From contig CAZELK010000004.1 of NCBI GenBank assembly GCA_964513145.1, positions 6,961 to 70,960 on the forward strand: a stretch of 64,000 bases of DNA. Direction: 5' to 3'. The position numbers and the translations under genes were made by a program. This document shows, piece by piece, positions 7,423-53,720 of this stretch. The notes below the pieces were generated by a model that worked only from the letters and a program-made list of their open reading frames with translations, had not been told where the DNA came from and ran no database searches. The stretch is from Candidatus Woesearchaeota archaeon. GTDB taxonomy: Archaea; Nanobdellota; Nanobdellia; SCGC-AAA011-G17; JACPIM01. The stretch's first letter is position 1, and every line of letters starts with the position of its first letter.

Positions 7423-8130
7423 ATGAAAAGAGGTAATAAATTAGATTCTCATGGAATTGAAAATGCTGGTTTTTTAAGGGAATTTATTTTTGGCTTAAAT
7501 GATGGTTTAGTTTCTACTTTATCAATTTTAGCTGGATTAAGTGGCGCAGTTGTAAGCAATAATATAATTGTCTTGGCTGGCTTGGCTGAAATTGTAGCTG
7601 GTTCTATTTCAATGGGCTTGGGAGCATATATTTCTACAAAATCAGAAGATGAATATTTTAAAAGCAAAATTGAAAAAGAAAGTAAAAATATAGAAGACCT
7701 GCCTTACATAGAAATAAATGAAATAAAGGATATTTACAGAAAAAAAGGTTTTAATGAAAAAGAAGTTAATCTTATAGTAAGCAAAATAATCAAGCATAAG
7801 GCAACATGGTTGGACACAATAATAAGGGAGAAAATAGGCATTAAACAAGAATTTGATGACCCCAAGAAATTGGGCCTAACAAACGGCTTCTCATTTGTTT
7901 TGGGTGGCTTATTTCCAGTACTGCCTTTTTTGTTTTTTCAAAGCAGTTATCCATTAATAATTGGAACCATTTCCTCATTAATAATATTATTTACAATTGG
8001 GGTCATAAAAAGCAGGATTACAGGTAGAAACTGGTTTGTAAGTGGTTTCGAGTTGACATTTATTTGTTTATTAGCTGCTGCTTTATCTTACTTTGCAGGA
8101 AAATTAATTAATTATTTGGGGGGTATATGA
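7423..8130 (+). CDS. VIT1/CCC1 family iron/manganese transporter
   Basis: LREFIFGLNDGLVS, AGSISMGLGAYIS motifs. Confidence 0.93.
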   Translation: MKRGNKLDSHGIENAGFLREFIFGLNDGLVSTLSILAGLSGAVVSNNIIVLAGLAEIVAGSISMGLGAYISTKSEDEYFKSKIEKESKNIEDLPYIEINEIKDIYRKKGFNEKEVNLIVSKIIKHKATWLDTIIREKIGIKQEFDDPKKLGLTNGFSFVLGGLFPVLPFLFFQSSYPLIIGTISSLIILFTIGVIKSRITGRNWFVSGFELTFICLLAAALSYFAGKLINYLGGI

Positions 8131-38617: not shown

Positions 38618-39772
38618 ATGAAACATATTTCTGAAAGAGAAAGAGAATTACCTGATGCAGTTATAGGTGATTTATTAAAAATAGCAAGTGAAAACAAAAA
38701 TATAATTTCCATGGGTGCTGGACAGCCGGATTTTAAAGCACCAAAACCAATTTTAGATTATGCTAAAAAAGTCATTTACAAATCAAGTCCATATTCCAAT
38801 CCTGCCGGTGTTTTAGAATTAAGAAAATTAATTGCAAATAAATTAAGAAAAGAAAATAAAATTAAAAATGCAAATGAAGACAATATTATTGTAACTGCTG
38901 GAAGCCAGGAAGCTTTATTTGTTTCCCTATTATGCAGCATTGATCCTGGAGAACAGGTTATTATTCCAAACCCAGGATATTTGGCTTATGTTCCTGCTGT
39001 TGAGTTATTGAATGGAAGCATTTCTTATACAAGATTATTAGAAGAAGATGGATTTGAAATTGATCCAGAAAAGATAAGGGAAGTTATTGACAAAAAAAAA
39101 TCCAAGGTTTTAATTTTAAATTCGCCATCCAACCCGACTGGAAATGTTTTAAGCAGAAAAACTTTGGAAAAAATTGCTGACATAGTCAGGGAATATGATC
39201 TGTATGTTTTTAGTGATGAAACTTATGAAAAGTTAGTTTATGATAAAAAACATGTTTCTATAGCAAGCTTAAATGGAATGGAAGACTATGCTTTGACTAT
39301 ACAGACTTTTTCAAAAAGTTATGCTATGTGCGGCTTTAGACTGGGGTATGCACAAGGACCAAAAGAATTAATTGATGCCATGATTAAAAGCAGCCATTAT
39401 ATTACTTTATGTGCTCCACATATTTCCCAGTTATTAGGTGTTAAGGCTTTACAAATCTCAAACAAGTATATAGAAAAAATGAGGCTGGAGTATGACAAAA
39501 GAAGAAAATATATTGTAAATAGATTAAATGAGTTAGGTTTGAAAACCAGTACACCTTATGGTGCTTTTTATGCATTTTCAAATATCAAGCATTTAAGCAA
39601 CAATAGTTATAATTTTTCAAAAGAATTGTTAAATAAAGCCAAGGTTGCTGTAGTTCCTGGAACTGAATTTGGAATTTATGGAGAGGGATATATAAGATTC
39701 AGCTATGCTACAGACTTAAAACTTATTAAAGAAGGATTGGACAGAATAGAGAATTTCTTGAATAAAATATGA
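38618..39772 (+). CDS. PLP-dependent aminotransferase class I/II
   Basis: GAGQPDF, NSPSNPTG, SDETY, TFSKSYAMCGFRLG. Confidence 0.93.
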   Translation: MKHISERERELPDAVIGDLLKIASENKNIISMGAGQPDFKAPKPILDYAKKVIYKSSPYSNPAGVLELRKLIANKLRKENKIKNANEDNIIVTAGSQEALFVSLLCSIDPGEQVIIPNPGYLAYVPAVELLNGSISYTRLLEEDGFEIDPEKIREVIDKKKSKVLILNSPSNPTGNVLSRKTLEKIADIVREYDLYVFSDETYEKLVYDKKHVSIASLNGMEDYALTIQTFSKSYAMCGFRLGYAQGPKELIDAMIKSSHYITLCAPHISQLLGVKALQISNKYIEKMRLEYDKRRKYIVNRLNELGLKTSTPYGAFYAFSNIKHLSNNSYNFSKELLNKAKVAVVPGTEFGIYGEGYIRFSYATDLKLIKEGLDRIENFLNKI

Positions 39773-40701
39773 AAATTGTAATTGCTTTGGGTGGAAATGC
39801 CATTATAAAAAAAGGTGAAAAGGAAACTTATGAAAATTTATTGAAAAATATTAAAGATAGCTGTAAAAGTGTTGTAAAAATAATTAAAAAAAATCAGATT
39901 GTAATAACGCATGGAAACGGTCCTGAGGTAGGGAACTTATTATTGCAAAATGAAATTGCTTCAAAACATGTTCCCCAAATGCCTTTAGATATTTTAAATG
40001 CTGAAACAGAGGGTTTTATTGGGTATTTAATACAAGAACAATTAAGAAATGAATTAATTAAAAATAAAATTAAAAGAAATATTGCTACTTTAGTTACGCA
40101 GACTTTAGTTTCTAAAAAAGATCCTGCTTTTAAAAACCCTACAAAATTTGTCGGTCAATTTTATAATTTAAAACAAGCTAATTTGTTGAAAAATAAATTC
40201 ATTATTAAAAAAGATTCTAACAGGGGATTTAGAAGGGTTGTACCAAGCCCAAAGCCAATAAAAATAATTGAATCTAATATTATAAATAAACTTGTTGAAA
40301 AACATTATATTGTTGTTGCTAGTGGTGGGGGCGGCATCCCTGTTGTTTTGGAGAAAAATAAATTAACTGGTGTTGAAGCAGTTGTTGATAAAGATTTAAG
40401 CTCTGCTTGTTTAGGCAAAAAAATTAAGGCTGATTTATTGCTGATATTAACTGATGTTGACAAAGTTTACTTGAATTATGGAACCAAAAAACAAAAAGGT
40501 TTAACAAAATTAAATATTAAAGAAGCTAAAAAATATTTAGATAATGGTCAATTTCCCCCAGGATCTATGGGACCAAAAATTGAAGCATCTATAAAATTTT
40601 TAGAGAATAGTTTAATTAAAAAACGACGAGTAATAATTTGTAATATTGAAAATGCAGAAAAAGCTTTAATTGGAAAAGTGGGAACAACAATCATAAATTA
40701 A
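39769..40701 (+). CDS. arcC: Carbamate kinase
   Basis: IALGGNA, THGNGPEVG, PTKFVG, RRVVPSP, GVEAVVDKD, GSMGPK. Confidence 0.95.
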   Translation: MKIVIALGGNAIIKKGEKETYENLLKNIKDSCKSVVKIIKKNQIVITHGNGPEVGNLLLQNEIASKHVPQMPLDILNAETEGFIGYLIQEQLRNELIKNKIKRNIATLVTQTLVSKKDPAFKNPTKFVGQFYNLKQANLLKNKFIIKKDSNRGFRRVVPSPKPIKIIESNIINKLVEKHYIVVASGGGGIPVVLEKNKLTGVEAVVDKDLSSACLGKKIKADLLLILTDVDKVYLNYGTKKQKGLTKLNIKEAKKYLDNGQFPPGSMGPKIEASIKFLENSLIKKRRVIICNIENAEKALIGKVGTTIIN

Positions 40702-41400
40702 TCATTTTCCAAATCTTCGATCTATTCTCTCAAATTCTTTAAGTACATATTCTAAGTCGGATTTTTCAAATTCTGGCCAATATTTACCCAAGAAAAATAT
40801 TTCTGCATAACTAGCTTGCCATAACAAGAAATTAGATACTCTTCTTTCTTTACCTGTTCTAATTACTATATCAACATCGCTATTTAAATATAAATTATTT
40901 TTAATTTCTTCTTCTGTTATTTTATCCAATGACAATTTTCCAGTAAGAACTTTTTGCGCCATTGCTTTGAATGCGTCTGTTATTTCTTCTATCCCACCAT
41001 AAGCTAGGGCGATGTTTATTGTTAATTTAGAATGAGACTTTGTTAATGACATTAATTCATGCATTCTGTCTTGCAAAGATACAGGCAGCTTGTTTAAACG
41101 CCCAATGTAGTTTATTTTTGTATTTTTTTCTCTTAGCTCTTCGTAATTATTTATCAATTTAATGGCTTCAGTTTCAATTAAAGCAAATAAATAAGATTTT
41201 TCTTCTTCTGATCTTTTTGAAAAATTTTGTTCTGAGAAGCCATATAAAGTCAATTCGGGGATTTCAAAATCTCTAAACCAGGTTATTAATTGAGATACTT
41301 TTTCAGCACCTTTTGCATGCCCTTCTTCTTTTTTAAAACCGTTTTCTTTAGCAAATCTTCTATTGCCGTCAGGTATTATTGCAATATGCCTTGGTTTCAT
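40702..41400 (-). CDS. uppS: cis-prenyltransferase (undecaprenyl diphosphate synthase family)
   Basis: HIAIIPDGNRR, FSEQN, RTGKERRVSNFLLWQ. Confidence 0.95.
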   Translation of the reverse strand: MKPRHIAIIPDGNRRFAKENGFKKEEGHAKGAEKVSQLITWFRDFEIPELTLYGFSEQNFSKRSEEEKSYLFALIETEAIKLINNYEELREKNTKINYIGRLNKLPVSLQDRMHELMSLTKSHSKLTINIALAYGGIEEITDAFKAMAQKVLTGKLSLDKITEEEIKNNLYLNSDVDIVIRTGKERRVSNFLLWQASYAEIFFLGKYWPEFEKSDLEYVLKEFERIDRRFGK

Positions 41401-41488
41401 GCAATTTTTTGCTATAAACCTGTATTTAAGACTAACTATTGCAAAATTTTAAATACAACTTAAGCAACTTTATTTTAAGAGGTGCAAT

Positions 41489-42796
41489 TTGTTGAAAAAA
41501 AGAGTTATTATAATTGGTGCAATGGGTAGGGATCTGCATAACTATATTATGTATTTCAAAGATAATCCAATCTATGAAGTTGTTGCTTTTACTAATACTC
41601 AAATCCCAACTCTAAAACATAATAAAATTCCAAAAATAATTACAGAAGATAAAGAAATACCCATACATCCTGAAGAAGAATTATCTTGGTTAATTAAACA
41701 TTATAATATAAATGAATGTGTTCTTTCGTATTCTGATTTAAGTGCTAAAGAATTATCTGATAAAGCTTCAATAGTATTAGCTGCTGGAGCTGATTTTAAA
41801 CTTCTTGGACCTAATAGTACAATGATAAAATCTCAGAAACCCTTAATATGCATTAATGCTACTAGAACTGGGGCTGGTAAAGGAACCATCGCTCGTTATT
41901 TTTTAAATATATTAAAAAAACTAAATAAAAACCCAACTGTAATTCGTCATCCTATGACCTACAATAGGAAATTAGAAAAACAGATTGTTCAGAGATTTAG
42001 CAATTATAATGATTTAGATAAGTTTGAGACAACTTTGGAAGAAAGAGAAGAATATCAACCATATATAGATAATGGGTATATTGTTTATGCTGGAGTTAAT
42101 TATAAATTTATTTTAAAAAAAGCGGAAAAAGAATCTGATTTTATAGTCTATGAGGGGGGAAATAATGACATATCTTTTTTTAAACCTGACTTATATGTAA
42201 CTGTAGTTGACCCTTTAAGAATTGATGGTTTATTTTCTTATCCTGGAGAAACAAATGTGAGATTAGCAGATATTTTAATTATTAACAAAGTTAATTTAGT
42301 AAAAAATAAGGATATCTATTTATTAATTAGTGAAATTAAAAAAATAAATAATAAAGCCCAAATTATAAAGGGAAATTCTATAATTTCTGTGGATAAACCT
42401 AATTTAATCAGGAATAAAAATGTCTTAGTTATTGAAGATTCACCAACAGTTACACATGGCTATTTAGGATATGCAGCAGGCTATATTGCAGCTAAAAAAT
42501 TTAAAGCCAGGAAAATAATCGATCCAAGACCCTATGCTGTTGGTTCATTTAAGGAAATTTTTAAGAAATATAAACATATAAAAAATGTATTACCGAGTAC
42601 TGGATATGATAAAAATGAATTAGATGATTTAGAAAAAACAATTAATAATTCTAAATGTGATTCTGTTATTTTTGGGACTCCTTGTGATTTAACTAAAGTC
42701 ATTAAAATAAATAAACCAATTGTAAAAGTTAATTATTTTTTTGAAGAAATTGGAAAACCTAAATTATTAAAAATTATAAAAAATAAATTTAAATAA
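41489..42796 (+). CDS. arcE: Arginine synthetase ArcE-like P-loop protein (usually annotated GTPase/cDPG synthetase-like)
   Basis: GAMGRDLHN...NPxYEVVAFTxTQIP, RTGAGKG, RHPM, TLEEREEY, GGNND, PGETN, THG; TTG start after gaggtg. Confidence 0.8.
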   Translation: MLKKRVIIIGAMGRDLHNYIMYFKDNPIYEVVAFTNTQIPTLKHNKIPKIITEDKEIPIHPEEELSWLIKHYNINECVLSYSDLSAKELSDKASIVLAAGADFKLLGPNSTMIKSQKPLICINATRTGAGKGTIARYFLNILKKLNKNPTVIRHPMTYNRKLEKQIVQRFSNYNDLDKFETTLEEREEYQPYIDNGYIVYAGVNYKFILKKAEKESDFIVYEGGNNDISFFKPDLYVTVVDPLRIDGLFSYPGETNVRLADILIINKVNLVKNKDIYLLISEIKKINNKAQIIKGNSIISVDKPNLIRNKNVLVIEDSPTVTHGYLGYAAGYIAAKKFKARKIIDPRPYAVGSFKEIFKKYKHIKNVLPSTGYDKNELDDLEKTINNSKCDSVIFGTPCDLTKVIKINKPIVKVNYFFEEIGKPKLLKIIKNKFK

Positions 42797-42798
42797 TT

Positions 42799-43989
42799 CT
42801 ATTTCTTAGGGAGTTTGTACAAAGAATAAGGAGCGATACCTATACCGAGTTTATCAAACATATAATCACTTATTTCTCCACCAGTCATACCTTTTCTTCT
42901 AAGAATAATAAGTTTATTTCTAATTTTAGGATTTAAATCTCTAATTAAAACTCTTTTTTTGATCATTTTAGCTAATCTTTTTAGTTTTCTTTTTCTACCT
43001 TCTGCTTTTAAGAAAATATTTATTTTTAAGGCGTTTAAAATACTTTCCTCATTTGAGACTGAAACCGCATCACCATCAGGATAAGAATGAATTTTTAGTT
43101 TTTTAAGAATTTTTATAAAAAGTTCTTTATTTGGATCACAAGCAATTTCTACTCTCCAAAAATTATGGGCTGAACCATCACCATCACATACTCCTTGCAG
43201 GAATGATATTAAAAATTTAGTTGGACAATCTAATAACCAATTCATTCTAACATTATTGTATGTTGTCCCTTCATTTTCTTTTAATCCTAGACAAGTTTTT
43301 ATTAAGAATTTTATGAATGGGGATTTTTCTGATATCCACCTATATAAGCCAAATGGTCTCCTCTTTTCTATTTTATTATAATCTTTTATTCTCTTAGCTT
43401 TTATACCTAAATAATTAAAATTTTTGGATGTAAAATTTCCTATTTTTAAACTCCAATCATATTTTTTAGTAAGTGCTAGAAGAAATTGATTAGAAAATCT
43501 ATATCCTTTGGGTTTACTACTATCGCTAACCATCATTCCCAATATGTATGCAAGGGCTTTTTCTTTTAATTTATGATTCGAATTATTTTTGCCAAGTTGG
43601 TTAATTACATAAGTGATCTCTTTATAAGAATTAATTTTTAGTGAAACTTCAATATAAGAATTATAAGTATGCCCACCTTGTTTGGAATGCAATGGTAATA
43701 ATTTATTTCTTTTTTTAATTTTAATATTGGGAACAGATTCGGCTAATAAGATCAAATATGGTTTACATATTAAATTATTCCTAACTTTATTGTAATCTAA
43801 TCTTAATTTTTTAGCTATTTGAGCACAAGATAAACCTTTATTTTTTAAATTTGTAACTTTGAAGTAATTTTTGCATCTTGTTCTATGGGTTGTGTAAAAT
43901 TCTCCGCTTATTAAATCTTCATAAAAATATAGTTTCTTTAATCTATTTAATAATTCTTTAATACTATTTATTTCGTTTGCACTAACCAC
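42799..43989 (-). CDS. Free-standing LAGLIDADG homing endonuclease-like protein
   Basis: LAYILGMMVSDS and FLQGVCDGDG motifs; HTH-like termini. Confidence 0.8.
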   Translation of the reverse strand: MVSANEINSIKELLNRLKKLYFYEDLISGEFYTTHRTRCKNYFKVTNLKNKGLSCAQIAKKLRLDYNKVRNNLICKPYLILLAESVPNIKIKKRNKLLPLHSKQGGHTYNSYIEVSLKINSYKEITYVINQLGKNNSNHKLKEKALAYILGMMVSDSSKPKGYRFSNQFLLALTKKYDWSLKIGNFTSKNFNYLGIKAKRIKDYNKIEKRRPFGLYRWISEKSPFIKFLIKTCLGLKENEGTTYNNVRMNWLLDCPTKFLISFLQGVCDGDGSAHNFWRVEIACDPNKELFIKILKKLKIHSYPDGDAVSVSNEESILNALKINIFLKAEGRKRKLKRLAKMIKKRVLIRDLNPKIRNKLIILRRKGMTGGEISDYMFDKLGIGIAPYSLYKLPKK

Positions 43990-43992
43990 CCT

Positions 43993-44484
43993 TTATATTT
44001 TTAATTTCTTCTTGTTTTTTGGATAATTTCTCTTTTCATATTCCAGTAATTTCTTTTTTAAAAAAACCACTTCAACAGAATTATAATTTGGAGTAAAGTC
44101 GCCTTTTCTATTAAATTGTTCTAGGCAGTGTTTTATTTCTTCAATATCAGCTAAATCTAGTTCTTCATCATTCCATAAACAAACTAATCTGTCTTCTGGA
44201 TAAAAATATTTGAAATAATCATCATTAAAATGACCGCATTCAGCACAATACAAATTCAAACCAACTTCTCTTATCCAGAATTGCGGTTCTCTTTCTTTCC
44301 CCATAACTTTGAATTCTCTTTTTTCTTCTTCAATTATTCCCCAGACAATTTCAAGATAAAATAATGGCGATTTACAATAAGAACATAGTACTGGATTATC
44401 TTGTTGTGCTAAACTCCATCTTCTAGTAGATTTTATACTATCTGCAATTAGTACTGATTTGTTTATTCTTTCAACTTCGTTCAT
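43993..44484 (-). CDS. Hypothetical zinc-binding protein
   Basis: CSYC and CAEC; ATG at 44484 preferred over the track start at 44514. Confidence 0.6.
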   Translation of the reverse strand: MNEVERINKSVLIADSIKSTRRWSLAQQDNPVLCSYCKSPLFYLEIVWGIIEEEKREFKVMGKEREPQFWIREVGLNLYCAECGHFNDDYFKYFYPEDRLVCLWNDEELDLADIEEIKHCLEQFNRKGDFTPNYNSVEVVFLKKKLLEYEKRNYPKNKKKLKI

Positions 44485-44492
44485 TTTATTGT

Positions 44493-44699
44493 AATTGCCG
44501 ATAGTGAAACGCACTTGTAATTTGAGCTTTGAATTTTGAGCCTTGACTATGGTTATGATAAGCTTTGAACTTTGGTCTTTTAGCCCACCAGCCCTGTCAT
44601 GGGAACAAAATGATTTACTTTATTCGGATGTAGACTCAAAACAAAATAAATCAAAGCACTATCTCGAACTATCGGCAACTTATCTATTTGATAGATAAG
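44493..44699 (-). ncRNA. Putative structured non-coding RNA downstream of DIP1984-family gene
   Basis: Perfect 9-bp hairpin 44679-44699; ttgccgatagt/actatcggcaa closing stem (44495-44505/44668-44678); 10-bp inner stem (44534-44543/44632-44641); 7-nt periodic repeats. Confidence 0.6.
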
Positions 44700-44713
44700 C
44701 AAAAATTTGGCAG

Positions 44714-45172
44714 CTAAATTAATAATTCCGCAGTCCAATTAGTTATTTGTATTTTATTATCTAAATTTGTTTTTTCTACTTGTAATTTCTCGATTTCTTC
44801 TTCTATTTTTTTCTCTTCAATTAATGGGTGTTTGTCTACATCATTTTTTTCTCTAAATAAGTAATCTCTTTTTCTCTCAAATAAATTGCCCATATCTGAA
44901 ATCCTTGCTCTTAGATCGCTTATTTTTAATATTGCTTCTGCTACTGTAATATCACCATCAATAAGTCTTATGCCTAAATTAGTTTTTTGAATCTTTAATT
45001 TTAATTGCTTAATTTCTTCTGTTTTTTCATTAATTTGTTTAGTTAAATCCCTTATATCGAATGGTGGTTTTTTCTTAGTTTCAATGTAGAAGTTTTCTTT
45101 TCTTAAATTTACTAACCTAGATAATCTTGCTTTTTCTTTTTTCAACAATGACAATGCTTCACCTAATTTCAT
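44714..45172 (-). CDS. DIP1984-family coiled-coil protein
   Basis: MKLGEAL... N-terminus, TVAEAI, LDNKIQITNWTAEL C-terminus. Confidence 0.8.
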   Translation of the reverse strand: MKLGEALSLLKKEKARLSRLVNLRKENFYIETKKKPPFDIRDLTKQINEKTEEIKQLKLKIQKTNLGIRLIDGDITVAEAILKISDLRARISDMGNLFERKRDYLFREKNDVDKHPLIEEKKIEEEIEKLQVEKTNLDNKIQITNWTAELLI

Positions 45173-45231
45173 TTTAATTTTTAAAAACTAACTTATTTAA
45201 ATATTTATGACGTATGTTTTTGTGGGTGCAA

Positions 45232-45441
45232 CTACACTGATTTTTCTTTACCGTCCAAATAAGTTATAAAACATGTTCTATTATTCTCATCTTTAGCTAA
45301 ATAACTGAATAATAGCTTACCTTTTTGCAGACATGACCCTATTGCGACTAATTTGTTTATAGAAATACTAAATGTTGCTCTTTTTTGTGAAACTTTACAT
45401 TTCCAGCCGATATTATCAAAAATTATTTCCATCAAATACAT
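45232..45441 (-). CDS. Small hypothetical protein (AbrB-like swapped-hairpin possible)
   Basis: KVSQKRATFSISINK...LQKGKLLFSYL. Confidence 0.55.
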   Translation of the reverse strand: MYLMEIIFDNIGWKCKVSQKRATFSISINKLVAIGSCLQKGKLLFSYLAKDENNRTCFITYLDGKEKSV

Positions 45442-45548
45442 AAATATAATTTAATATATAAGTGTTAGGCAGATATCTGAAATGTCCAGTAGTTTTTTGT
45501 CTAGTGAAATTAAATGAATTATATTGTTGATATAAGTCGTAATAAAAT

Positions 45549-45657
45549 CCGGAAGATTTTCGGTGTCCAGTTGGTATTTCCTGAAAAGTTTTCGGTTTAA
45601 TATTTAAATAAGCCAAAAGATTTACGAAACTAAGTGTAAAAACCGGAAGATTTTCGG
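45549..45657. promoter_or_regulatory. Four phased imperfect palindromic boxes (CCGGAAGATTTTCGG type)
   Basis: Exact copies 45549-45563 and 45643-45657; degenerate copies at 45580 and 45612; 31-32 bp spacing. Confidence 0.55.
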
Positions 45658-45697
45658 AAGTAAAGATTATAAACTATTAAGAAATTGAAAAAGTGAC

Positions 45698-46126
45698 ATG
45701 ACATGTCCTTTTTGTGATAAAAAAGTCATAGAAAATCAAAAAATATTTGAGACTCTAACAGAATTTGTTATTTACAATATTAGGCCGGCAAATAAGGGAC
45801 AATGTTTAGTAATACCAAAAAGACATGTAACAAATATAAGAGAGCTTTCTGAAAATGAATTATCCAGTTTATTTAATACTGTTAAATTTGTTTCTGAAAA
45901 ATTAAATTCTGCATTAAAGGCTAAAGGATTTAATTATGGATTTAACGAGGAAAAAATTGCTGGACAAAGTATTGAACATTTTCATTTTCACATATTGCCA
46001 AGATATACAAATGATAAAATTCCCGAATTTCATTTGTTTCATCGTGATCCAAAAACAAAGAAAAATCTTGAAGAAAAAGAACTGAAAAAATTTGTTGAAG
46101 AATTTAAAAGTTTTTTTGCTGAATAA
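45698..46126 (+). CDS. HIT family hydrolase
   Basis: QSIEHFHFHILPR; CPFC N-terminus. Confidence 0.92.
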   Translation: MTCPFCDKKVIENQKIFETLTEFVIYNIRPANKGQCLVIPKRHVTNIRELSENELSSLFNTVKFVSEKLNSALKAKGFNYGFNEEKIAGQSIEHFHFHILPRYTNDKIPEFHLFHRDPKTKKNLEEKELKKFVEEFKSFFAE

Positions 46127-46138
46127 ATTTTATGGAGA

Positions 46139-46438
46139 TTATAGTTCTATAAAAATTTCTTCGTTTTTTACTTCGACTTTATAAGAATTTAATTTACCCA
46201 TTCCAGGCATTATGTTTTGGCCTGTTTTTACATCATATTGCCAGCCATGCAATGGACAAGTAATATTATTTCCTTCCAAATCCCCTTCTGCCAATGGACC
46301 ACCAACATGCAAACAATCATTATCTATTGCAAAAAATTGATCATTGATTTTAAACAAAACTATTTCTTTGTCATTAACCTTAACTAATTTACGATTGTTT
46401 GTTAATTCTGAAACTTTTGCGACTTTGGTTTTTACCAT
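46139..46438 (-). CDS. Rieske [2Fe-2S] ferredoxin
   Basis: CLH...CPLHGW; likely start ATG 46438. Confidence 0.92.
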   Translation of the reverse strand: MVKTKVAKVSELTNNRKLVKVNDKEIVLFKINDQFFAIDNDCLHVGGPLAEGDLEGNNITCPLHGWQYDVKTGQNIMPGMGKLNSYKVEVKNEEIFIEL

Positions 46439-46478
46439 AGGAAAAGTATTAAATAATTGGTTAAAATACTTTTTGTTT

Positions 46479-47051
46479 ATGTATAAAGCCATAATTTTAT
46501 TTGGGGCTCCTGGAACTGGCAAGGGGACGCAAGCAGAACTTCTTATGAAAAAGGGGGGGTATTTTCATTTTTCTACAGGAAATATGTTTAGGAATTTAGA
46601 TAAAAAAACTAAAACTGGAAAAGTTATTATTGATTTAATTGATCATGGAAATTTTGTGCCTGATGATTTAGCATTGAAATTATTTGAAGAAACATTAGAT
46701 AAGTATGTCAATGATAAAAGATTTAACCCTGAAAAGGAAATATTAATTTTAGATGGGATTCCAAGAACAAAAGAACAGGTACATCATTTAAGAAAGGTTG
46801 TTGACATTAAAAAAATTATTTATTTTGTCATTAAAGATGAAGTTGCTATAGAAAGAACAACAAAAAAAAGATCTGGAGAAGAAAACAGGGAAGATGATAA
46901 AAATGCTGATATTGTTAAAAAAAGATTAGAGACTTTTAAAAGAATTACTCTTCCTATTTTAAAAGAATATAAAAAAGATCTCATTGTGGAAATAAATGGA
47001 GAAAGAAGTGTAGATGAGATACATAGAGATATTTTAAGAATTTTAAAATAA
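46479..47051 (+). CDS. adk: Adenylate kinase family nucleoside monophosphate kinase
   Basis: GAPGTGKGTQA, HFSTG, VPDD, DGIPRT, REDD; likely start ATG 46479. Confidence 0.9.
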   Translation: MYKAIILFGAPGTGKGTQAELLMKKGGYFHFSTGNMFRNLDKKTKTGKVIIDLIDHGNFVPDDLALKLFEETLDKYVNDKRFNPEKEILILDGIPRTKEQVHHLRKVVDIKKIIYFVIKDEVAIERTTKKRSGEENREDDKNADIVKKRLETFKRITLPILKEYKKDLIVEINGERSVDEIHRDILRILK

Positions 47052-47097
47052 TTAAATTTATATTTGATATCGTTATAGTATTCCCAGGGGTGAAATT

Positions 47098-48039
47098 ATA
47101 AAACATTTATTAAGTATTAAGGATTTAAGCAAAAAAGAAATATTAGAATTTATTAAATTAGGCATAAAAATCAAAGATAACCCTAAAAAATATTCTAAAA
47201 GTTTATTTGAAAAAACATTGTTATTATTTTTTGAACAGCCTTCTTTAAGGACAGAGATTTCCTTTGAGACAGCCATATTTCAAATGGGTGGTGAAGCAAT
47301 AGACTATCATACTGAAAACTCACCATGGAAAATCGGGAAAGAAAGCCTGGAAGATGTTGCCAAGGTTATAAGCCAATATTGTGATGTTGCAGCCTTAAGA
47401 ATAAATGACCATGATGATTTAGTAAAATTTTCTAAAAATTCCAGCATACCAATTATTAATGCAATGACGTCATTTGAACATCCCTGCCAAATTTTGGGAG
47501 ATTTAATGACTATTTTTGAAATTAAAAAGAGTTTTAAAAATCTAAAATTAACTTATTTGGGAGACAGCAACAATAATGTTACACATTCGCTAATTTATGG
47601 ATGCACAAAATTAGGCATTGATATTTCTATTGGGTGCCCTTCTGAAAAAGAGTTTATGCCTCTACAATCTGTAATAAAAGACGGAAAAAGATTAAGCAAA
47701 ATAAACAAATGCGAATTCAAGATTTTTCATGATGCAAATGAATGTGTGAAAGATTCTAAAATAATTTACACTGATTCATGGATGTCATATAAAATTCCTA
47801 AAGAAGAAAAACCAAGAAGAGTAAAATTTCTGAAAGATTTTCAGGTAAATAAAAATATTATGAAACATGCTGATAAAAATGCAGTATTTATGCATTGCTT
47901 GCCTGCATTGAGAGGAGATGAAGTAACTAAAGACGTAATTGATGGAAAACAAAGCATTGTGTTTAAGCAGGCAAAAAACAGATTATTTTCAGAAAAGGCG
48001 ATATTGCTTAAATTATTAAAAGGTAGCGTAACCAATTAA
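47098..48039 (+). CDS. arcB: Ornithine carbamoyltransferase
   Basis: PSLRT, HPCQ, DSWMSY, HCLPALRG; frame extends upstream to KHLLSIKDLS with an ATA after GGTGA RBS. Confidence 0.9.
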   Translation: MKHLLSIKDLSKKEILEFIKLGIKIKDNPKKYSKSLFEKTLLLFFEQPSLRTEISFETAIFQMGGEAIDYHTENSPWKIGKESLEDVAKVISQYCDVAALRINDHDDLVKFSKNSSIPIINAMTSFEHPCQILGDLMTIFEIKKSFKNLKLTYLGDSNNNVTHSLIYGCTKLGIDISIGCPSEKEFMPLQSVIKDGKRLSKINKCEFKIFHDANECVKDSKIIYTDSWMSYKIPKEEKPRRVKFLKDFQVNKNIMKHADKNAVFMHCLPALRGDEVTKDVIDGKQSIVFKQAKNRLFSEKAILLKLLKGSVTN

Positions 48040-48446
48040 CATTTTACAACCTTCCTTAATTTAAAGAATAAATTTATTTTATTTTGCAATATTTCTTCTT
48101 TTACTGGCGGACCATAAGCAATATCGTCTCTTTTATTTACAATTTCTTTAACTAAACTTATTATCTCTTCAATATTTCCTATAGAATCAAGCGGAGATAC
48201 AATTTGTCTTTGAATATAATCTTTTAATTTGTCATCTTTTTTCTTAAACCATCTATGATTAATTTTTGATCATTCCTTGATTATATTTAAATTATGAAAA
48301 TGTTGTTCTAAAATATTTACAGCACCCAAAGATAAATAAAATGCTAGTCTTCTCTGATGGGGCAATAAACCTCTTTTATCATTTAAAGCCGAATTGATTT
48401 CTTCTAAAACTTCATTTATTATCTCCTGATGTTTTTCGATTTTCAT
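48036..48446 (-). pseudogene. HEPN-like protein interrupted by in-frame TGA
   Basis: 137-codon frame MKIEKHQEIINEV...IIKE*SKINHRWF...RDDIAYG...; TGA at 48270-48272. Confidence 0.6.
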
Positions 48447-48813
48447 TTTAAGTCATTTGTCTTAACACAATTAAGACAGGTGTCTACATAATAAAAATTA
48501 TTAAACTCTAATTTTAGAAATGTGAATGAGAATAAAATCTGGAAATCAAATTTAATTTAGAGATTTGTTAATAGGTTGCATAGCTCAAGAAAATTGTTAT
48601 AGTTTAAAAACAAATAATAAAAAACATTTTGAAAGAATTCCAGGGTTAATTTTATTATAAACTGATTATATCTTTTTAATAAATTCAATCATTCAAAATT
48701 TTATTTGAATATCTTGAAAATGTTTCAATAATGCAATTAAAAGTTCGTAATTCTTCTGAAAATTAAATCACAAACTATTTAAAATAAAAATTACTTAATT
48801 ACTTTAATAAGAG

Positions 48814-50298
48814 GTGATTAATTTTTTGGAAGTTTATAAAAACTTTATAGGCGGCAAGTTCATTAATTCAGAATCAGGAAAAACATTTGCAAGCATAAAT
48901 CCGAGCAATGGAAAAATTTTGGGTTATTTTCAAGAAAGCAATAAAAAAGATTTGGACAATGCTATTAAATCTGCTTTAAATGGTTTTAAATTTTGGAGGA
49001 ATTTTCCAGCACCAAAAAGGGGGGAAATTCTATTTAATGTTGCCAAATTGCTAAAAGAAAATAAAAAAAGACTAAGCAGATTAGTTACAATGGAAATGGG
49101 AAAAGTAATTTCAGAAGCTGAAGGTGATGTGCAAGAGGCAATTGATATTTTTGAATATATGGGTGGAGAGGGAAGAAGATTATTTGGGGTAACGACGCCG
49201 TCAGAATTAAGAGATAAATTTTGCATGACATTAAGAAGACCTTTAGGAATTACTGCCTTGATAACGCCATGGAATTTTCCAATTGCGATTCCTGCATGGA
49301 AAATTTCTGCAAGTTTAATTTGCGGAAACAGCGTTATATTCAAACCAAGTTCTGACACGCCATTATGCGCTTTTGAATTAGTAAAAATATTAGATGATGC
49401 TGGCTTGCCTGAGGGAGTTTTAAACTTAATTACTGGAAAAGGCGAGGAAATTGGAAATGAAATTATAAAGAATAAGAATATTAACTGTATTTCATTTACT
49501 GGATCCAGAGAAGTCGGCGAGTTTATTTTAAAAAATTCTGGTGTTAATAGAATTGGTTTAGAGATGGGTGGCAAAAATCCGATTATAATTATGGATGATG
49601 CTAATTTAGATCTTGCTTTAGAAGGCGTGATATGGGGTGGGTTTGGAACTACAGGGCAAAGATGTACAGCTGCGTCAAGAATAATTCTTCATAATGATAT
49701 TAAAAAAGAATTTGAAGAGAAATTATTAAAGAAAACTAAAAAACTGAAAATAGGCGATGGATTAAAAGAAAATACTGATGTCGGTCCTTTAATTGCTGAA
49801 AGAGCAATCCACAAAGTAGATTTTTATGTTAGCTCTGGGAAAAAAGAGGGAGCTCAACTTATTTGTGGTGGGAAAAGAATATCAAGTAGTGGGTTCTTTT
49901 ATGAGCCCACTATATTCACAAATGTGAAAAAAGAAATGCGGATAGCAAAAGAAGAAATCTTCGGTCCTGTTATATGCTTGATAAGTGTGAAAGATATTGA
50001 TGAAGCAATAGAAATATGCAACAGTGTTGACTATGGTTTAAGCTCCAGTATTTATACTGAGAATATACAAAATGCATTTAAGGCAATTGAGAAAATAGAT
50101 GCTGGCTTAACTTATGTAAATAGTTCAACTATAGGGAGCGAAGTTCATTTGCCTTTTGGCGGTGTAAAAAGTACAGGCAATGGAACAAGAGAAGGCGGGT
50201 ATACTGCTATTGAAGAATTCTCAGAAATTAAAACAGCTTATATTGATTATTCAAATAAATTACAAAAAGCACAAATAGATAGCGTGAGAGTGAAATGA
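48814..50298 (+). CDS. NAD-dependent aldehyde dehydrogenase
   Basis: ITPWNFP, FTGS, LEMGGKNP, GQRCTA, EEIFGPV, PFGG; start may be TTG 48826. Confidence 0.95.
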   Translation: MINFLEVYKNFIGGKFINSESGKTFASINPSNGKILGYFQESNKKDLDNAIKSALNGFKFWRNFPAPKRGEILFNVAKLLKENKKRLSRLVTMEMGKVISEAEGDVQEAIDIFEYMGGEGRRLFGVTTPSELRDKFCMTLRRPLGITALITPWNFPIAIPAWKISASLICGNSVIFKPSSDTPLCAFELVKILDDAGLPEGVLNLITGKGEEIGNEIIKNKNINCISFTGSREVGEFILKNSGVNRIGLEMGGKNPIIIMDDANLDLALEGVIWGGFGTTGQRCTAASRIILHNDIKKEFEEKLLKKTKKLKIGDGLKENTDVGPLIAERAIHKVDFYVSSGKKEGAQLICGGKRISSSGFFYEPTIFTNVKKEMRIAKEEIFGPVICLISVKDIDEAIEICNSVDYGLSSSIYTENIQNAFKAIEKIDAGLTYVNSSTIGSEVHLPFGGVKSTGNGTREGGYTAIEEFSEIKTAYIDYSNKLQKAQIDSVRVK

Positions 50299-50603
50299 GT
50301 TTACAAAAAATATTTGGATATGCTGAGTTAATTATTGGTGTAATTTTAATATTTGGGGTTATAATTGGTTCTTATTTTGTATTTTCTGTAACTTCAAATA
50401 TTATATCAAAAGGGGATAATATTATTAGTTCAGCTGCAAGCAATGCTGGTTTTGAAAAAGAGGAAGTTAGTCAGTATAAACAATCTTTACAAGAAATAAT
50501 TCCTTTATTAATTTATAGTGTTGGTGGTGTTTATTTACTGATATTTTTGTTAATTGGAATTTTATTTAGTTTACAAGGAATCTTGAATATTAGGGAGGAA
50601 TAA
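50295..50603 (+). CDS. Small membrane protein
   Basis: Two TM segments. Confidence 0.6.
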   Translation: MSLQKIFGYAELIIGVILIFGVIIGSYFVFSVTSNIISKGDNIISSAASNAGFEKEEVSQYKQSLQEIIPLLIYSVGGVYLLIFLLIGILFSLQGILNIREE

Positions 50604-50605
50604 AA

Positions 50606-50728
50606 ATGTCAGATTATGGAGATTTTAGCCAGAGAAAAAGCAAGAATGATAAAAAAGCAAAAAGAAGGGTAAGGGTTTATAAGAAAGGCGGAAAATACAG
50701 GGGAATTGACCTTACGAAAAAAGAATAA
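50606..50728 (+). CDS. Small basic 40 aa protein
   Basis: MSDYGDFSQRKSKNDKKAKRRVRVYKKGGKYRGIDLTKKE; gggagg RBS upstream. Confidence 0.5.
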   Translation: MSDYGDFSQRKSKNDKKAKRRVRVYKKGGKYRGIDLTKKE

Positions 50729-50752
50729 TCTAGCAAAATTATATAAATACCA

Positions 50753-50773
50753 GGTGTATACTAATTGTATACC
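50753..50773. promoter_or_regulatory. Putative RHH operator (two GTATAC palindromes)
   Basis: gtatac-taatt-gtatac immediately upstream of antitoxin ATG. Confidence 0.4.
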
Positions 50774-50995
50774 ATGACAGATGCAATAGGGGTAAAATTA
50801 CCATCAAGATTGAAAGAAGAAATAGATGAATTAATCAGATTAGGGGTATTTGTTTCCAGATCAGATGCTTTAAAATTTGGAGCCAGATTAGTTGTTATGC
50901 TTGAAAAAATGGAACTTCCTTTATCTAAAAGAGCAGAAGAATATGCTTTTGAAGAAATAACACAAAAATTTAAGAGGATTAAGAATGTACATTGA
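50765..50995 (+). CDS. Ribbon-helix-helix (CopG-type) antitoxin
   Basis: IGVKLPSRLKEEIDELIRLGVFVSRSDALK. Confidence 0.8.
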   Translation: MYTMTDAIGVKLPSRLKEEIDELIRLGVFVSRSDALKFGARLVVMLEKMELPLSKRAEEYAFEEITQKFKRIKNVH

Positions 50996-51377
50996 TGCAG
51001 ATGTTATTTATGCCCATATAAAACCAACTGACTGGCTTAAACTTTATGCTGACAAGATTATTTCTTTAAAAAATTTACAAACTTCTATAATAAGCATAAC
51101 TGAATTAGAAATTGCAGCTAAAAGAGATTTTCAGGATGATTTTTATAATAGAGTTTTAGATAAAGTAAAAGAAATAAAAAATCTCAAAATAATAAACTTA
51201 GACATTAAAATATTGAAAAAAGCAATAGAATTAAGAAAACAATACAGTCTTGGTATTTTTGATTCAATTCATATTGCAACAGCAATAATCTTCAAGGAAA
51301 ATGTTATAATCAGTTCAGATTCTGCTTTTGATAATATTGTTGAAATAAAAAGAAAAGACCCAAGAGCGTACAAATAA
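50985..51377 (+). CDS. vapC: PIN-domain toxin (VapC)
   Basis: YIDADVIY, TELE, FDSIHIATA, ISSD. Confidence 0.88.
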   Translation: MYIDADVIYAHIKPTDWLKLYADKIISLKNLQTSIISITELEIAAKRDFQDDFYNRVLDKVKEIKNLKIINLDIKILKKAIELRKQYSLGIFDSIHIATAIIFKENVIISSDSAFDNIVEIKRKDPRAYK

Positions 51378-51386
51378 AATACAAAA

Positions 51387-53720
51387 TTGATTATTATGAT
51401 TAAAAAAATAGGCGTTAAAACAAAAAAATTAATTGAAAGGGACACTAAAGTAATAAGCCCATCTTTGACAAGAGAATATGAATTTGCTTTTCAAAAAGGA
51501 AAGGGTGTTTTTGTTTATGATGTTGACAATAAAAAATATCTTGATTTTGCTGCAGGGGTTGCTGTAAACAGCCTGGGTTATGGAAATAAAGAAGTAATTA
51601 ATGCAATTAAAAAACAATTAAATTATGGAGTTCATATTGGGTTTAGTGATTTTTATTGCGAGAAACCAGTTGAATTTGTCGAGCTTCTTTTAAAATTTTT
51701 ACCAAATAATTTACAAAAAGCTTTTTTATCAAATTCAGGAACTGAAAGCATTGAATGCGCAATGAAGCTAGCTAAATGGCATACAAGAAGAAAGTGGTGC
51801 ATTAGTTTTAATAATTCTTTTCATGGAAGATGTTACGATGAACAGACAGAAGTTTTAACAGAAAGTGGCTGGAAATTTTTTAAAAATTTAATTAAAGAAG
51901 ATAAAGTGCTAACTTTAAATTTAAACAACAATAGTATTGAATATCAAAATCTTGTTGGCATATATTCTTATGACTATGATGATGAATTGATTCATTTCAA
52001 AAGCTCATCTATTGATTTATTGGTTACTCCAAATCATAATATGTTAGTGGAATTCAAAGGAAATATTTCTCTAATTGAAGCAAATAAAGTTCGCACTCAT
52101 ATGAAGATACCAAGATCAGGAAATTGGATGGGAATTGAAAAACAAAAATTTATACTTCCAGCTATTCAAATAGAGAGATCTTCTCGAAATGGAAATGTTA
52201 CTTTTCAGGAAATTAGGGAAAGAGAAATACTGTTAAATTTATGGGTGAAATTTTTTGGGATTTGGCTTGCTGAGGGGTGGACTTCTTCTATAACAAAAGA
52301 ATGCTATAATACTGGGATAGCTCAAAAAGATTCAATAATTTGCAATAAAATTGAAAATTTATTAAACGAAATGGATTTTAAATATAGTAAAAGAGAGAAA
52401 AAAAGAAATTGTTATGAATATATAATACAAGAAGGCAAACAATTATGGTCTTATTTAAATCAATTTGGCGGTTCTCATACAAAGTTTATTCCTGAAGAAA
52501 TAAAAAATCTACCCCCCGATTACTTAAAATTATTATTAGAATGGATGTGTTATGGAGATGGTACAATAGATAAATCAAATAGAAACATATATTTTACTTG
52601 TTCAAAAAAATTGGCTGACGATGTGCAAGAAATATTTTTAAAAATTGGTTCAAATGCTAGAATTTATAGTAGAAAAAGAAAAACTACTTTTTCAAAATCG
52701 GAATGTATATTTTATGAAGTAAGAGAAAGAAAAAGAAGTCATCATCTATTGTGGACTAAAAAAGGAGCAATAAAAAAAGAAAATTATTGTGGAAAAGTTT
52801 ATTGCTGCGAAGTTCCGAACCATGTTATTTACGTAAGAAGAAATGGCTACCCAGCTTGGTGTGGTAATTCTTACGGGAGTTTATCTTTAACAGATTCTAA
52901 AAAAGTTCATAAAGAAAGATTTGAACCTTTTTTGCCTGTAAAACATGTTCCTTATGCAGACACTTATAGATTTAATGGAAATAAAGATGAATGTGCAAAT
53001 CATTGCCTGAATGAACTTGAAAAAACAATTAATGGATTACAAAATGATGTTGCAGCTATTTTTCTGGAACCTATCCAGGGGGAGGGCGGATATATTGTGC
53101 CGCCAGTTGAATTTGTAAAAGGTGTAAGAGAAATTTGTGATAAATATAACATTTTATTGGTTGCTGATGAAGTTCAATCAGGCTGCTACAGAACTGGAAA
53201 ATTTCTAGCTATTGAGAACTTTAAAATTAAACCAGACATAGTTTGTTTAAGCAAGGCTGTTGGTGGTGGACTGCCTTTGGGTGTTACTTTAGCTTCCAAT
53301 GAAATTATGGATTGGGTTCAAGGGAGTCACGCAAACACACTTGGCGGAAATTTATTAAGCTGCAGTGCAGGAATTGCAACTTTAAATTATTATAAAAGAC
53401 ATAAGATATGGAATAATGTCTTGAATGTTGGGGAATTTATTTTAAAAAAATTAGAGAAATTAAAAAAAGAACATGAAGTTATTGGTGATGTTCGTGGCAT
53501 TGGTTTAATGATAGGGGCTGAATTTGTTGACAATAAAAAAAATAAATGGTATAATGTCGACTTCAGGGATAAACTATTGTACAAATGCAAAGACAATGGA
53601 CTAATATTAATTGGTTCTGGAAAAAGTGTAATTAGACTTTGTCCGCCTTTAATTTTGAATAAGAAAGAAGCTAACTTGGGTTTAAATATATTTGAAAATT
53701 CTATTAAAAAAATTAATTAA
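51387..53720 (+). CDS. Class III PLP aminotransferase (ornithine/acetylornithine type) with intein
   Basis: YLDFAAG, NSGTE, FHGR|SYG, EPIQGEGG, DEVQSG, SKAVGGG, GLMIG. Confidence 0.92.
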   Translation: MIIMIKKIGVKTKKLIERDTKVISPSLTREYEFAFQKGKGVFVYDVDNKKYLDFAAGVAVNSLGYGNKEVINAIKKQLNYGVHIGFSDFYCEKPVEFVELLLKFLPNNLQKAFLSNSGTESIECAMKLAKWHTRRKWCISFNNSFHGRCYDEQTEVLTESGWKFFKNLIKEDKVLTLNLNNNSIEYQNLVGIYSYDYDDELIHFKSSSIDLLVTPNHNMLVEFKGNISLIEANKVRTHMKIPRSGNWMGIEKQKFILPAIQIERSSRNGNVTFQEIREREILLNLWVKFFGIWLAEGWTSSITKECYNTGIAQKDSIICNKIENLLNEMDFKYSKREKKRNCYEYIIQEGKQLWSYLNQFGGSHTKFIPEEIKNLPPDYLKLLLEWMCYGDGTIDKSNRNIYFTCSKKLADDVQEIFLKIGSNARIYSRKRKTTFSKSECIFYEVRERKRSHHLLWTKKGAIKKENYCGKVYCCEVPNHVIYVRRNGYPAWCGNSYGSLSLTDSKKVHKERFEPFLPVKHVPYADTYRFNGNKDECANHCLNELEKTINGLQNDVAAIFLEPIQGEGGYIVPPVEFVKGVREICDKYNILLVADEVQSGCYRTGKFLAIENFKIKPDIVCLSKAVGGGLPLGVTLASNEIMDWVQGSHANTLGGNLLSCSAGIATLNYYKRHKIWNNVLNVGEFILKKLEKLKKEHEVIGDVRGIGLMIGAEFVDNKKNKWYNVDFRDKLLYKCKDNGLILIGSGKSVIRLCPPLILNKKEANLGLNIFENSIKKIN
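51831..52868 (+). mobile_element. Intein with LAGLIDADG-type endonuclease domain (346 aa)
   Basis: Starts CYDEQTEVLT, VTPNHNM, FFGIWLAEGW and WMCYGDG, ends VRRNGYPAWCGN then Ser+1. Confidence 0.92.

Follow-up and report, generated by a model that had tools for sequence, protein, structure and literature searches.

A candidate arginine synthetase (ArcE) pathway with putative enzymes of ornithine oxidation in a DPANN archaeon

How DPANN archaea of reduced genome size generate ATP has mostly been deduced and in many cases is not clear, and the locus described here raises the question whether arginine might serve such a cell as a source of ATP. The stretch of 64,000 nucleotides analysed (in the following, the window; GC content ≈ 28%) carries between 38.6 and 57.4 kb an island of genes with a homologue of arcE, the gene of the arginine synthetase ArcE, together with genes for carbamate kinase (CK), ornithine carbamoyltransferase (OTC), a class I and a class III aminotransferase, an NAD(P)-dependent aldehyde dehydrogenase (ALDH), and an M42 aminopeptidase (Table 1). 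As far as the genes can tell, and with a probability of roughly three in four, the window encodes an ArcE pathway extended by ornithine-oxidising enzymes in a DPANN archaeon of the Woesearchaeota/Nanoarchaeota type.

The template for such a pathway comes from Thermococcus kodakarensis, where ArcE (TK2200) acts together with ArcB (OTC, TK0871) and ArcC (CK) (Michimori et al. 2024, PMC11032458; 2026, PMC13260591). Transferred to the window, ArcE would convert arginine, ADP and Pi to citrulline, NH3 and ATP, OTC would cleave citrulline with Pi to ornithine and carbamoyl phosphate, and CK would use the latter to phosphorylate ADP, leaving carbamate which breaks down to CO2 and NH3; the three enzymes would yield two ATP per arginine. 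The class III aminotransferase, once spliced, would transfer the δ-amino group of ornithine to 2-oxoglutarate with formation of glutamate-5-semialdehyde and glutamate, the ALDH would oxidise the semialdehyde to glutamate with NAD(P)+, and 2-oxoglutarate would be regenerated by the class I aminotransferase and/or a distant glutamate dehydrogenase (GDH). Free amino acids would probably be supplied from peptides by the M42 aminopeptidase. In this scheme we infer both the substrates of the class III aminotransferase and of the ALDH and the weight of the pathway as a source of ATP.

A preliminary description of the locus had listed the genes for CK, an ArcE-like P-loop protein, OTC, ALDH and the class III aminotransferase within 14 kb, had added a GDH gene at 8127, and had assigned the DNA to a DPANN-like archaeon lacking arginine deiminase (ADI, arcA) in this stretch. 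All these genes are present, each of them having been checked against profile libraries. Pfam domain scans took in 50 larger open reading frames (ORFs) of the window, including every ORF of at least 200 residues; within this scope, which covers the window and not the rest of the genome, no ADI domain was found. The assignment of the host stands as well. The PheRS of the window is of the archaeal type, the best named matches of PheRS-alpha come from metagenome-assembled genomes (MAGs) of Nanoarchaeota, Woesearchaeota and Nanoarchaeia (54-70% identity), and an extended gene order is common to the window and to locus L005 of a groundwater Woesearchaeota MAG. On these marker matches and on this synteny, upon which the placement rests, the host is confirmed, at this level, as a DPANN archaeon of the Woesearchaeota/Nanoarchaeota type. 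A search of genome contigs with the ArcE protein returned a Woesearchaeota MAG as best match (52% identity) and no close relative of the window, and the proteins at the window ends found matches only on short Logan contigs. Sequencing runs SRR12113420, SRR12113424 and SRR12113383 contain these sequences as well.

The ArcE-family protein

Central to the cluster is the 435-residue P-loop protein encoded by arcE, the reading frame of which opens with a TTG codon with AAGAGGTG just upstream. Among the profile libraries, Pfam gave a marginal cobW match only and NCBIfam no match; full-length homologues, in the thousands, came from a large protein collection. The Thermococcus sequences P0105 and P0107 matched with 483 bits, 53% identity and 99% coverage (E 2e-139), under the names 'GTPase' or 'cyclic 2,3-diphosphoglycerate synthase'. 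A search seeded with a Thermococcus orthologue gave a Thermococcales set including P. furiosus (P0139), P. horikoshii and T. litoralis as well as P0129, which stands for 201 proteins clustered at 90% identity and spread over many species of Thermococcus and Palaeococcus. In alignment A1 the window protein is 50-51% identical to its orthologues from P. furiosus and P. horikoshii. Homologues of arcE, TK2200 of T. kodakarensis being ArcE itself, occur throughout the Thermococcales and were formerly annotated as putative GTPases (PMC11032458).

In an alignment of 101 sequences, 134 columns reach a conservation of 90% or more among the 100 homologues, and the window protein agrees with 124 of them, including those of the P-loop A-x-R-T-G-x-G-K and of RHPM, EEREE, GGNND, DPxR and ED.PT.THG; a further count, 43 columns invariant across all 101 sequences, includes the window protein by construction. 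The Walker A motif reads A124-T-R-T-G-A-G-K131-G-T, followed by RHPM (153-156), EEREE (184-188), GGNND (223-227), DPLR (241-244) and EDSPTVTHG (316-324). The exceptions at conserved columns comprise D204N, unique to the window, G53E and P157T, plus S132G, D222E and G318S, which are subclade-wide.

The names borne by these homologues lead to an alternative, namely that the protein is a cyclic 2,3-diphosphoglycerate synthetase (cDPGS) or a generic GTPase with no role in arginine metabolism. Many homologues are so named at NCBI, the weak Pfam match is to cobW, and the AlphaFold (AF2) model (pLDDT 93.3) found in Foldseek its best match in the cDPGS of M. fervidus (8oru/8ork; 18% identity, TM ≈ 0.45, E 7.6e-18), followed by LpxK. 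Yet both cDPGS and LpxK have been reported as remote relatives of TK2200 too, and the cDPG synthetases, of low similarity to ArcE, served there as the outgroup family (PMC11032458). At the sequence level 8ork/8oru gave no match to the window protein, and the solved cDPGS 9sxb reached 32.7 bits over a partial region of 84 residues, as against 483 bits and 53% identity over the full length to Thermococcales ArcE. The preliminary description had held that clustering with the cDPG synthetases would speak against an ArcE; as the cDPGS matches are marginal and the Thermococcales matches full-length, the protein falls on the ArcE side, the separation being judged by these contrasts of score and identity. 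Nor would cDPG synthesis account for a linkage to OTC and CK. A cDPGS identity was rejected on sequence score and fold identity, and this alternative is left with a negligible probability. Since the Thermococcales ArcE orthologues bear identical names, 'cDPG synthase' and 'GTPase' are best regarded as inherited annotation; for this family they mislead the metabolic reconstruction of MAGs.

Judged by its sequence, the 435-residue protein is a full-length member of the ArcE (TK2200) family, and from the orthology to TK2200 (PMC11032458) we infer that it catalyses the arginine synthetase reaction.

Carbamate kinase, OTC and the conserved neighbourhood

The two partners expected of an ArcE are encoded close by: the CK gene precedes arcE by 0.8 kb, and that of OTC follows it at a distance of 4.3 kb. 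CK matches the arcC model TIGR00746 over the full length (1-309) with 387.5 bits, above the equivalog cut-off of 358.25. Its gene and that of the class I aminotransferase upstream share 4 nt, where the start codon of the one meets the stop codon of the other. For OTC even the truncated ORF 47218-48039, lacking the N-terminal 40 residues, exceeds the cut-off of TIGR00658 (289.8 versus 280.85 bits), and the extent of homology bears out the earlier placement of the gene at 47098. The motifs S-x-R-T (SLRT), HPxQ and HCLP were found, and DxxxSMG is replaced by DSWMSY. SLRT and DSWMSY are common to the window OTC and to its closest solved structure, 3grf, which we take to be the OTC of Giardia. By these profile and motif matches CK and OTC are genuine members of their families.

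Related contigs indicate that the arrangement is no accident of this window. Locus L001, a 113-kb contig with an ArcE 78% identical to that of the window, has the order class I aminotransferase, CK, OTC, ArcE, a 396-residue ORF, then ALDH, MazE/PIN, class III aminotransferase and M42 peptidase. In L005, the Woesearchaeota locus with an ArcE of 52% identity, the order is CK, Fic, ArcE, RibD_C, OTC, cyclophilin, ALDH, class III aminotransferase, M42 peptidase and a subunit of an ADP-forming acyl-CoA synthetase, whereas a Nanoarchaeota contig (L021) unites class I aminotransferase, acyl-CoA synthetase, ALDH and ArcE. The class I aminotransferase is syntenic in L001, L021 and L063. Of a further 80 ArcE loci from metagenomes, 12 have CK and 7 have OTC at a distance of at most 3 kb, and in 7 the immediate neighbour of ArcE is an ALDH that shares 52-62% identity with that of the window; loci with both CK and OTC adjacent to ArcE are L001, L005, L049, L052 and L090. 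On a bacterial contig (L044, 1161-6683), which also bears a TonB-dependent receptor, ALDH, ArcE, CK and a class III aminotransferase follow one another on one strand in an apparent operon without OTC, and the ALDH-ArcE-CK arrangement is found again on contigs L029, L030, L036, L065 and L070. Because the same genes stand together in independent related contigs, their co-location within 14 kb of the window is more than chance.

In two of these loci an ADP-forming acyl-CoA synthetase gene of the alpha type adjoins the ArcE/ALDH cluster (L005, 17604-18971; L021, 4276-5649), which hints at a larger island for the fermentation of amino acids, with additional steps of substrate-level phosphorylation. 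Aenigmarchaeota-like loci carry arcE near an M24 Xaa-Pro peptidase and PmbA/TldD proteases (L003, 2579-5031; L023, 5603-9335; L025, 5491-9320), again a context of peptide degradation.

The catabolic use of these enzymes, although the favoured one, is not the only conceivable one. In T. kodakarensis, which is without carbamoyl-phosphate synthetase (CPS), ArcE and ArcB supply carbamoyl phosphate; deletion of arcE or arcB leads to pyrimidine auxotrophy and that of arcC has little effect (PMC13260591), and ArcE is required for proline synthesis via ornithine (PMC11032458). A CPS was not seen in the Pfam scans of the window either, and the enzymes might mainly provide carbamoyl phosphate for pyrimidines or other carbamoylations, along with ornithine and proline precursors, instead of ATP, both roles being compatible in one cell. 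The preliminary description had not considered this use. On the other hand, CK, which consumes carbamoyl phosphate for ATP, is tightly linked to ArcE in the window, in L001, in L005 and in the 12 metagenomic loci mentioned; neither pyrB/pyrI nor proC is present in the window or in the syntenic loci; and the conserved ALDH and ornithine aminotransferase point to a disposal of ornithine, not to its saving. As the principal purpose, such a supply is somewhat unlikely.

The same genes can be read in the reverse direction, as an anabolic module in which CK makes carbamoyl phosphate, OTC citrulline, and ArcE arginine from citrulline, NH3 and ATP, a minimal replacement of ArgG/ArgH. The ArcE reaction is reversible, with a ΔG0' of only -6.8 kJ/mol, and arginine synthesis took place in vivo when citrulline was supplied, according to the 2024 paper (PMC11032458); being so near equilibrium, it keeps an anabolic role conceivable. 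A biosynthetic role of ArcE was suggested for some bacteria without ArgG/ArgH (PMC11032458), and argG/argH are likewise missing from the window. Against this stand the recurrent partners, oxidative ALDHs and ornithine aminotransferases, of which the one in L044 is of the catabolic RocD type. Genes for ornithine biosynthesis (argJ/B/C) are missing from the window and the syntenic loci, the neighbours are peptidases and aminotransferases such as are typical of amino-acid fermenters, and the T. kodakarensis CK could not replace carbamoyl-phosphate synthesis (PMC13260591). The anabolic module is very unlikely. The catabolic direction, by comparison, seems the more probable one, since CK is tightly linked, the ALDH is oxidative and no genes of ornithine biosynthesis lie nearby, and it would be favoured further by the practically irreversible NAD(P)-dependent ALDH step.

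The proposed route from ornithine to glutamate, and what weighs against the pathway

What distinguishes the cluster from the three-enzyme core is the pair of class III aminotransferase and ALDH. The extein of the aminotransferase has its best solved match in 7vno (359.5 bits; next match, 292.9), which, from the P. horikoshii-style molecule name of the entry, we take to be PH1423 of P. horikoshii. It is proposed to be an ornithine δ/ω-aminotransferase of the PH1423/TK2101 type. In PMC9986279, PH1423 is listed as an ornithine δ-aminotransferase, and TK2101 of T. kodakarensis is its counterpart, converting ornithine to glutamate semialdehyde (PMC9986279; PMC11032458). The 428-residue orthologue in L001 has no intein; that of the window is interrupted by a LAGLIDADG intein, which the earlier account of the gene had not mentioned. 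It is bounded by Cys1 and a terminal Gly-Asn with Ser at +1, it contains the LAGLIDADG blocks, and it is inserted at the conserved motif SFHGR|(T/S)xGSLS. A second intein, with Intein_splicing/Hint_2 domains, interrupts a radical SAM protein elsewhere in the window (21012-23006).

The aminotransferase of the bacterial locus L044 is of another kind, an ornithine aminotransferase of the RocD/OAT type (547 bits to human ornithine aminotransferase). The strongest support for a route from ornithine to glutamate comes from the company that ArcE and CK keep: in different domains of life they are joined by a single ALDH orthogroup and by ornithine aminotransferases of two unrelated kinds. By its conserved adjacency to ArcE, CK and ornithine aminotransferases, the ALDH is proposed to be a glutamate-5-semialdehyde or a 2-oxoglutarate-semialdehyde dehydrogenase; as the two semialdehydes differ only at C2, either substrate would be chemically plausible.

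The GDH-like protein, as suggested earlier, has Pfam ELFV domains and GDHs as closest solved relatives (206 bits). Its motifs are GPGKGG(IR) and GGAKAG; in these enzymes GPxKGG holds the glutamate-specific Lys and GGxKxG the catalytic Lys, a distinction of GDH from leucine dehydrogenase. With 96 bits to leucine dehydrogenase and the GDH motifs present, a leucine-dehydrogenase reading was rejected. The protein is unusually short, with ≈ 30 N-terminal residues fewer than solved GDHs, and the start of its gene overlaps the stop of an upstream gene for a VIT1 iron transporter. It may recycle 2-oxoglutarate from outside the conserved cluster. The earlier proposal that ornithine is routed to glutamate by the aminotransferase, ALDH and GDH is supported for the first two, by synteny and by the relationship to 7vno, and is weak for the third.

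A number of observations weigh against the pathway as outlined. The ALDH remains below every equivalog cut-off of NCBIfam: its best model is the 2-oxoglutarate-semialdehyde dehydrogenase GucD (549 bits versus a cut-off of 770), and the models of Δ1-pyrroline-5-carboxylate (P5C)/glutamate-semialdehyde dehydrogenases are missed by a wide margin (TIGR01237, 365 versus 659.65; PRK03137, 414 versus 648). The intein has Gly as penultimate residue in place of the usual His, and its predicted splicing is needed for a functional aminotransferase. The GDH-like gene has no counterpart in related loci and lies 30 kb from the cluster, and no arginine transporter was seen in the window scans. The OTC frame is open from 47068, with the first ATG, GTG or TTG only at 47218; the only candidates for initiation, a complication not noticed earlier, are the codons ATT (47095) and ATA (47098) that immediately follow the Shine-Dalgarno-like AGGGGTGA, and the L001 orthologue (MPKHFL...) starts with ATG at the equivalent position of the alignment. 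The arc genes of the window are spread over 14 kb on both strands, with unrelated genes interleaved and OTC displaced relative to L001, and the DPANN loci L003, L019, L023 and L025 carry ArcE without CK or OTC nearby. Moreover, T. kodakarensis was not among the matches listed for ArcE, so that other Thermococcales orthologues had to serve as proxies for TK2200.

To the same side of the balance belongs the position of the window ArcE within its own family. In a neighbour-joining (NJ) tree of 101 ArcE-family sequences it falls within a distinct subclade of 19 tips (bootstrap 30/30), whose named members are proteins of Aenigmarchaeota and Nanoarchaeota MAGs. This clade shares correlated changes at the nucleotide site, Ser to Gly in Walker A (GKGT), Asp to Glu in Walker B, and EDG to EDS; the ArcE of L005 has the same GKGT and Glu changes with EDA instead of EDS. 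Residue 204 of the window protein is Asn, where all 100 other homologues have Asp, although an assembly error is improbable since the same sequence is also found on other contigs (P0001). The GKGT/Glu subclade possibly differs in cofactor or kinetics. Since CK and OTC stand beside arcE in both L001 and L005, each of the GKGT/Glu type, the arginine context is retained in this type of ArcE.

Considering the ALDH scores, it is conceivable that only ArcE, OTC and CK form an arginine pathway, with ornithine excreted or passed on to proline or polyamines, and that the ALDH and the class III aminotransferase belong to another route, for example of γ-aminobutyrate (GABA) and succinate semialdehyde, of putrescine and aminobutyraldehyde, or of lysine. 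The ALDH scores comparably on the models of succinate-semialdehyde dehydrogenase (SSADH), BADH and aminobutyraldehyde dehydrogenase, enzymes of the PH1423 type also take lysine, 5-aminovalerate and GABA according to PMC9986279, and in T. kodakarensis ornithine is converted to proline (PMC11032458). A separate route nevertheless does not explain why non-orthologous aminotransferases, PH1423-like in the window and L001 and RocD-like in L044, accompany the same ALDH orthogroup together with ArcE and CK in archaea and bacteria, and a decarboxylase for the formation of GABA or putrescine is absent from the cluster. Such a separate route is unlikely, and the route from ornithine to glutamate is preferred.

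Going one step further, the ArcE-CK-OTC set, the dedicated ALDH orthogroup and an ornithine aminotransferase could constitute a conserved 'extended arginine synthetase' module, which in bacteria and DPANN archaea would lead from arginine to glutamate with a gain of two ATP and NAD(P)H. In DPANN of the Woesearchaeota type, its ArcE would come from a lineage-specific subclade whose Mg/nucleotide site would be rewired (GKGT, Walker B Glu), and the module would be a principal source of substrate-level ATP, an archaeal counterpart of the ADI system that epibiotic Saccharibacteria acquired. This broader view is tentative, with somewhat less than even odds.

Relation to known systems, and further genes

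With the pathway of T. kodakarensis the window shares the three enzyme families, a full-length ArcE 50-53% identical to the Thermococcales orthologues with the family motifs kept, the lack of ADI in the stretch examined, and an ornithine ω-aminotransferase of the PH1423/TK2101 type. It differs in that the host is a low-GC (28%) DPANN archaeon and not a hyperthermophilic euryarchaeon, in the ArcE subclade with GKGT rather than GKS, Glu rather than Asp in Walker B, and EDS rather than EDG, and in the clustering of the genes, here joined by ALDH, class I aminotransferase and M42 peptidase. The ADI (ArcABC) pathway, which is found for example in Halobacterium, Pseudomonas, Giardia and epibiotic Saccharibacteria (PMC8764695), has in common with the proposed pathway both the steps of OTC and CK and the physiological logic, with arginine as a substrate-level source of ATP for small fermentative or symbiotic cells. 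The first step would be carried out by the ATP-conserving ArcE instead of the hydrolytic ArcA, giving two ATP per arginine and not one, and neither ArcA nor the antiporter ArcD is found in the window. The ADI system of epibiotic Saccharibacteria is the closest ecological parallel (PMC8764695).

The M. fervidus cDPGS (8ork/8oru) has the overall P-loop fold in common with the window ArcE; its identity is only 18%, a sequence search hardly picks it up, neither OTC nor CK is linked to it in genomes, and the window protein is not a member of that family. The arginase pathway of Bacillus, with RocD and a P5C dehydrogenase of the RocA/PutA type, resembles the proposed scheme in its δ-transamination followed by NAD(P)-dependent oxidation to glutamate, and L044 uses a true RocD-type aminotransferase. 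The window aminotransferase, by contrast, is of the archaeal PH1423 type with an intein, and its ALDH is no orthologue of RocA/P5C dehydrogenase.

The pathway as such is already known, and the ArcE family is large and widespread; what is new is the host lineage and not the kind of system, with two modestly new additions, the ArcE subclade specific to DPANN and the ALDH and ornithine aminotransferases that recur as partners. In its main text, the 2024 paper lists many lineages with ArcE, DPANN not being among them, and mentions no ALDH partner (PMC11032458). A literature search found no paper joining 'arginine synthetase' with DPANN, and 'arginine synthetase' and 'arcE' together only in two papers of the Atomi laboratory. 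The 2024 discovery would in this way be extended to a superphylum absent from that main text, and the two recurrent partners, an orthogroup of ALDHs and the aminotransferases for ornithine, may carry the route through to glutamate. For DPANN with reduced genomes, a two-ATP arginine pathway would be a concrete and assayable energy source, which makes arginine or peptides candidate nutrients for enrichment or co-culture.

Table 1. Positions of the genes and elements discussed; window coordinates unless a locus is named.
Feature	Position	Strand	Remarks
Compact GDH-like ELFV dehydrogenase	8127-9233	+	368 aa; Pfam ELFV domains
Class I aminotransferase	38618-39772	+	Apparently co-transcribed with CK; closest solved structures 1gd9/1dju (aspartate/aromatic aminotransferases)
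Carbamate kinase (arcC)	39769-40701	+	310 aa; TIGR00746, 387.5 bits
Undecaprenyl-diphosphate synthase	40702-41400	-	Between CK and arcE
arcE-type arginine synthetase homologue	41489-42796	+	435 aa; P-loop protein, DPANN subclade
396-aa ORF with two LAGLIDADG-like motifs	42799-43989	-	Tail-to-tail, 2 nt from the arcE stop
Homologues of the 396-aa ORF (≈ 400 aa)	L001 11310-12500; L019 4716-6146; L023 9309-10511		
Adenylate kinase	≈ 46482-47051		Adjoins OTC
Ornithine carbamoyltransferase (arcB/argF)	47095-48039	+	TIGR00658; homology to ≈ 47095-47098
NAD(P)-dependent ALDH	48814-50298	+	Pfam Aldedh, E 1e-169; recurrent ArcE neighbour
PIN toxin gene	50985-51377		Between ALDH and class III aminotransferase
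Class III aminotransferase, proposed ornithine δ/ω-aminotransferase (PH1423/TK2101 type)	51387-53720	+	777 aa; intein inside
LAGLIDADG intein	51831-52868	+	346 aa; residues 149-494 of the class III aminotransferase
M42 (TET-type) aminopeptidase	56388-57410	+	Syntenic with the cluster in L001 and L005

As to the remaining genes of the island, the M42 aminopeptidase was considered for a TET3-like specificity for basic residues, which was rejected, the best solved relative being of the PhTET2 type; no arginine-specific role is therefore claimed for it. The undecaprenyl-diphosphate synthase gene occupies the slot between CK and arcE that is held by OTC in L001 (8986-9918, minus strand), which indicates a local rearrangement in the window. 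A search of the window for tRNAs and Rfam families found none, and a scan for sigma-70 promoters and terminators gave fewer matches than shuffled sequences, an uninformative result for an archaeon.

Downstream of arcE, the 396-residue ORF shows the motifs YILGMMVSD and FLQGVCDGDGS and a helix-turn-helix-like N-terminus, with no significant Pfam match. In four divergent DPANN loci, an ORF of ≈ 400 residues (33-64% identity) converges tail-to-tail with arcE, either reaching its 3' end or overlapping it, and this ORF could be a free-standing homing endonuclease with arcE as landing site, or a domesticated regulator. Between ALDH and class III aminotransferase, L001 has a MazE/PIN toxin-antitoxin pair (16519-17111), and the PIN gene of the window occupies the same position, presumably with a small ORF upstream. 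Finally, a protein with a Fic/DOC domain recurs near the arc genes, in the window (14623-15564, minus strand), in L001 (3125-4084) and in L005 (8950-9909), where its gene lies between those of CK and ArcE.

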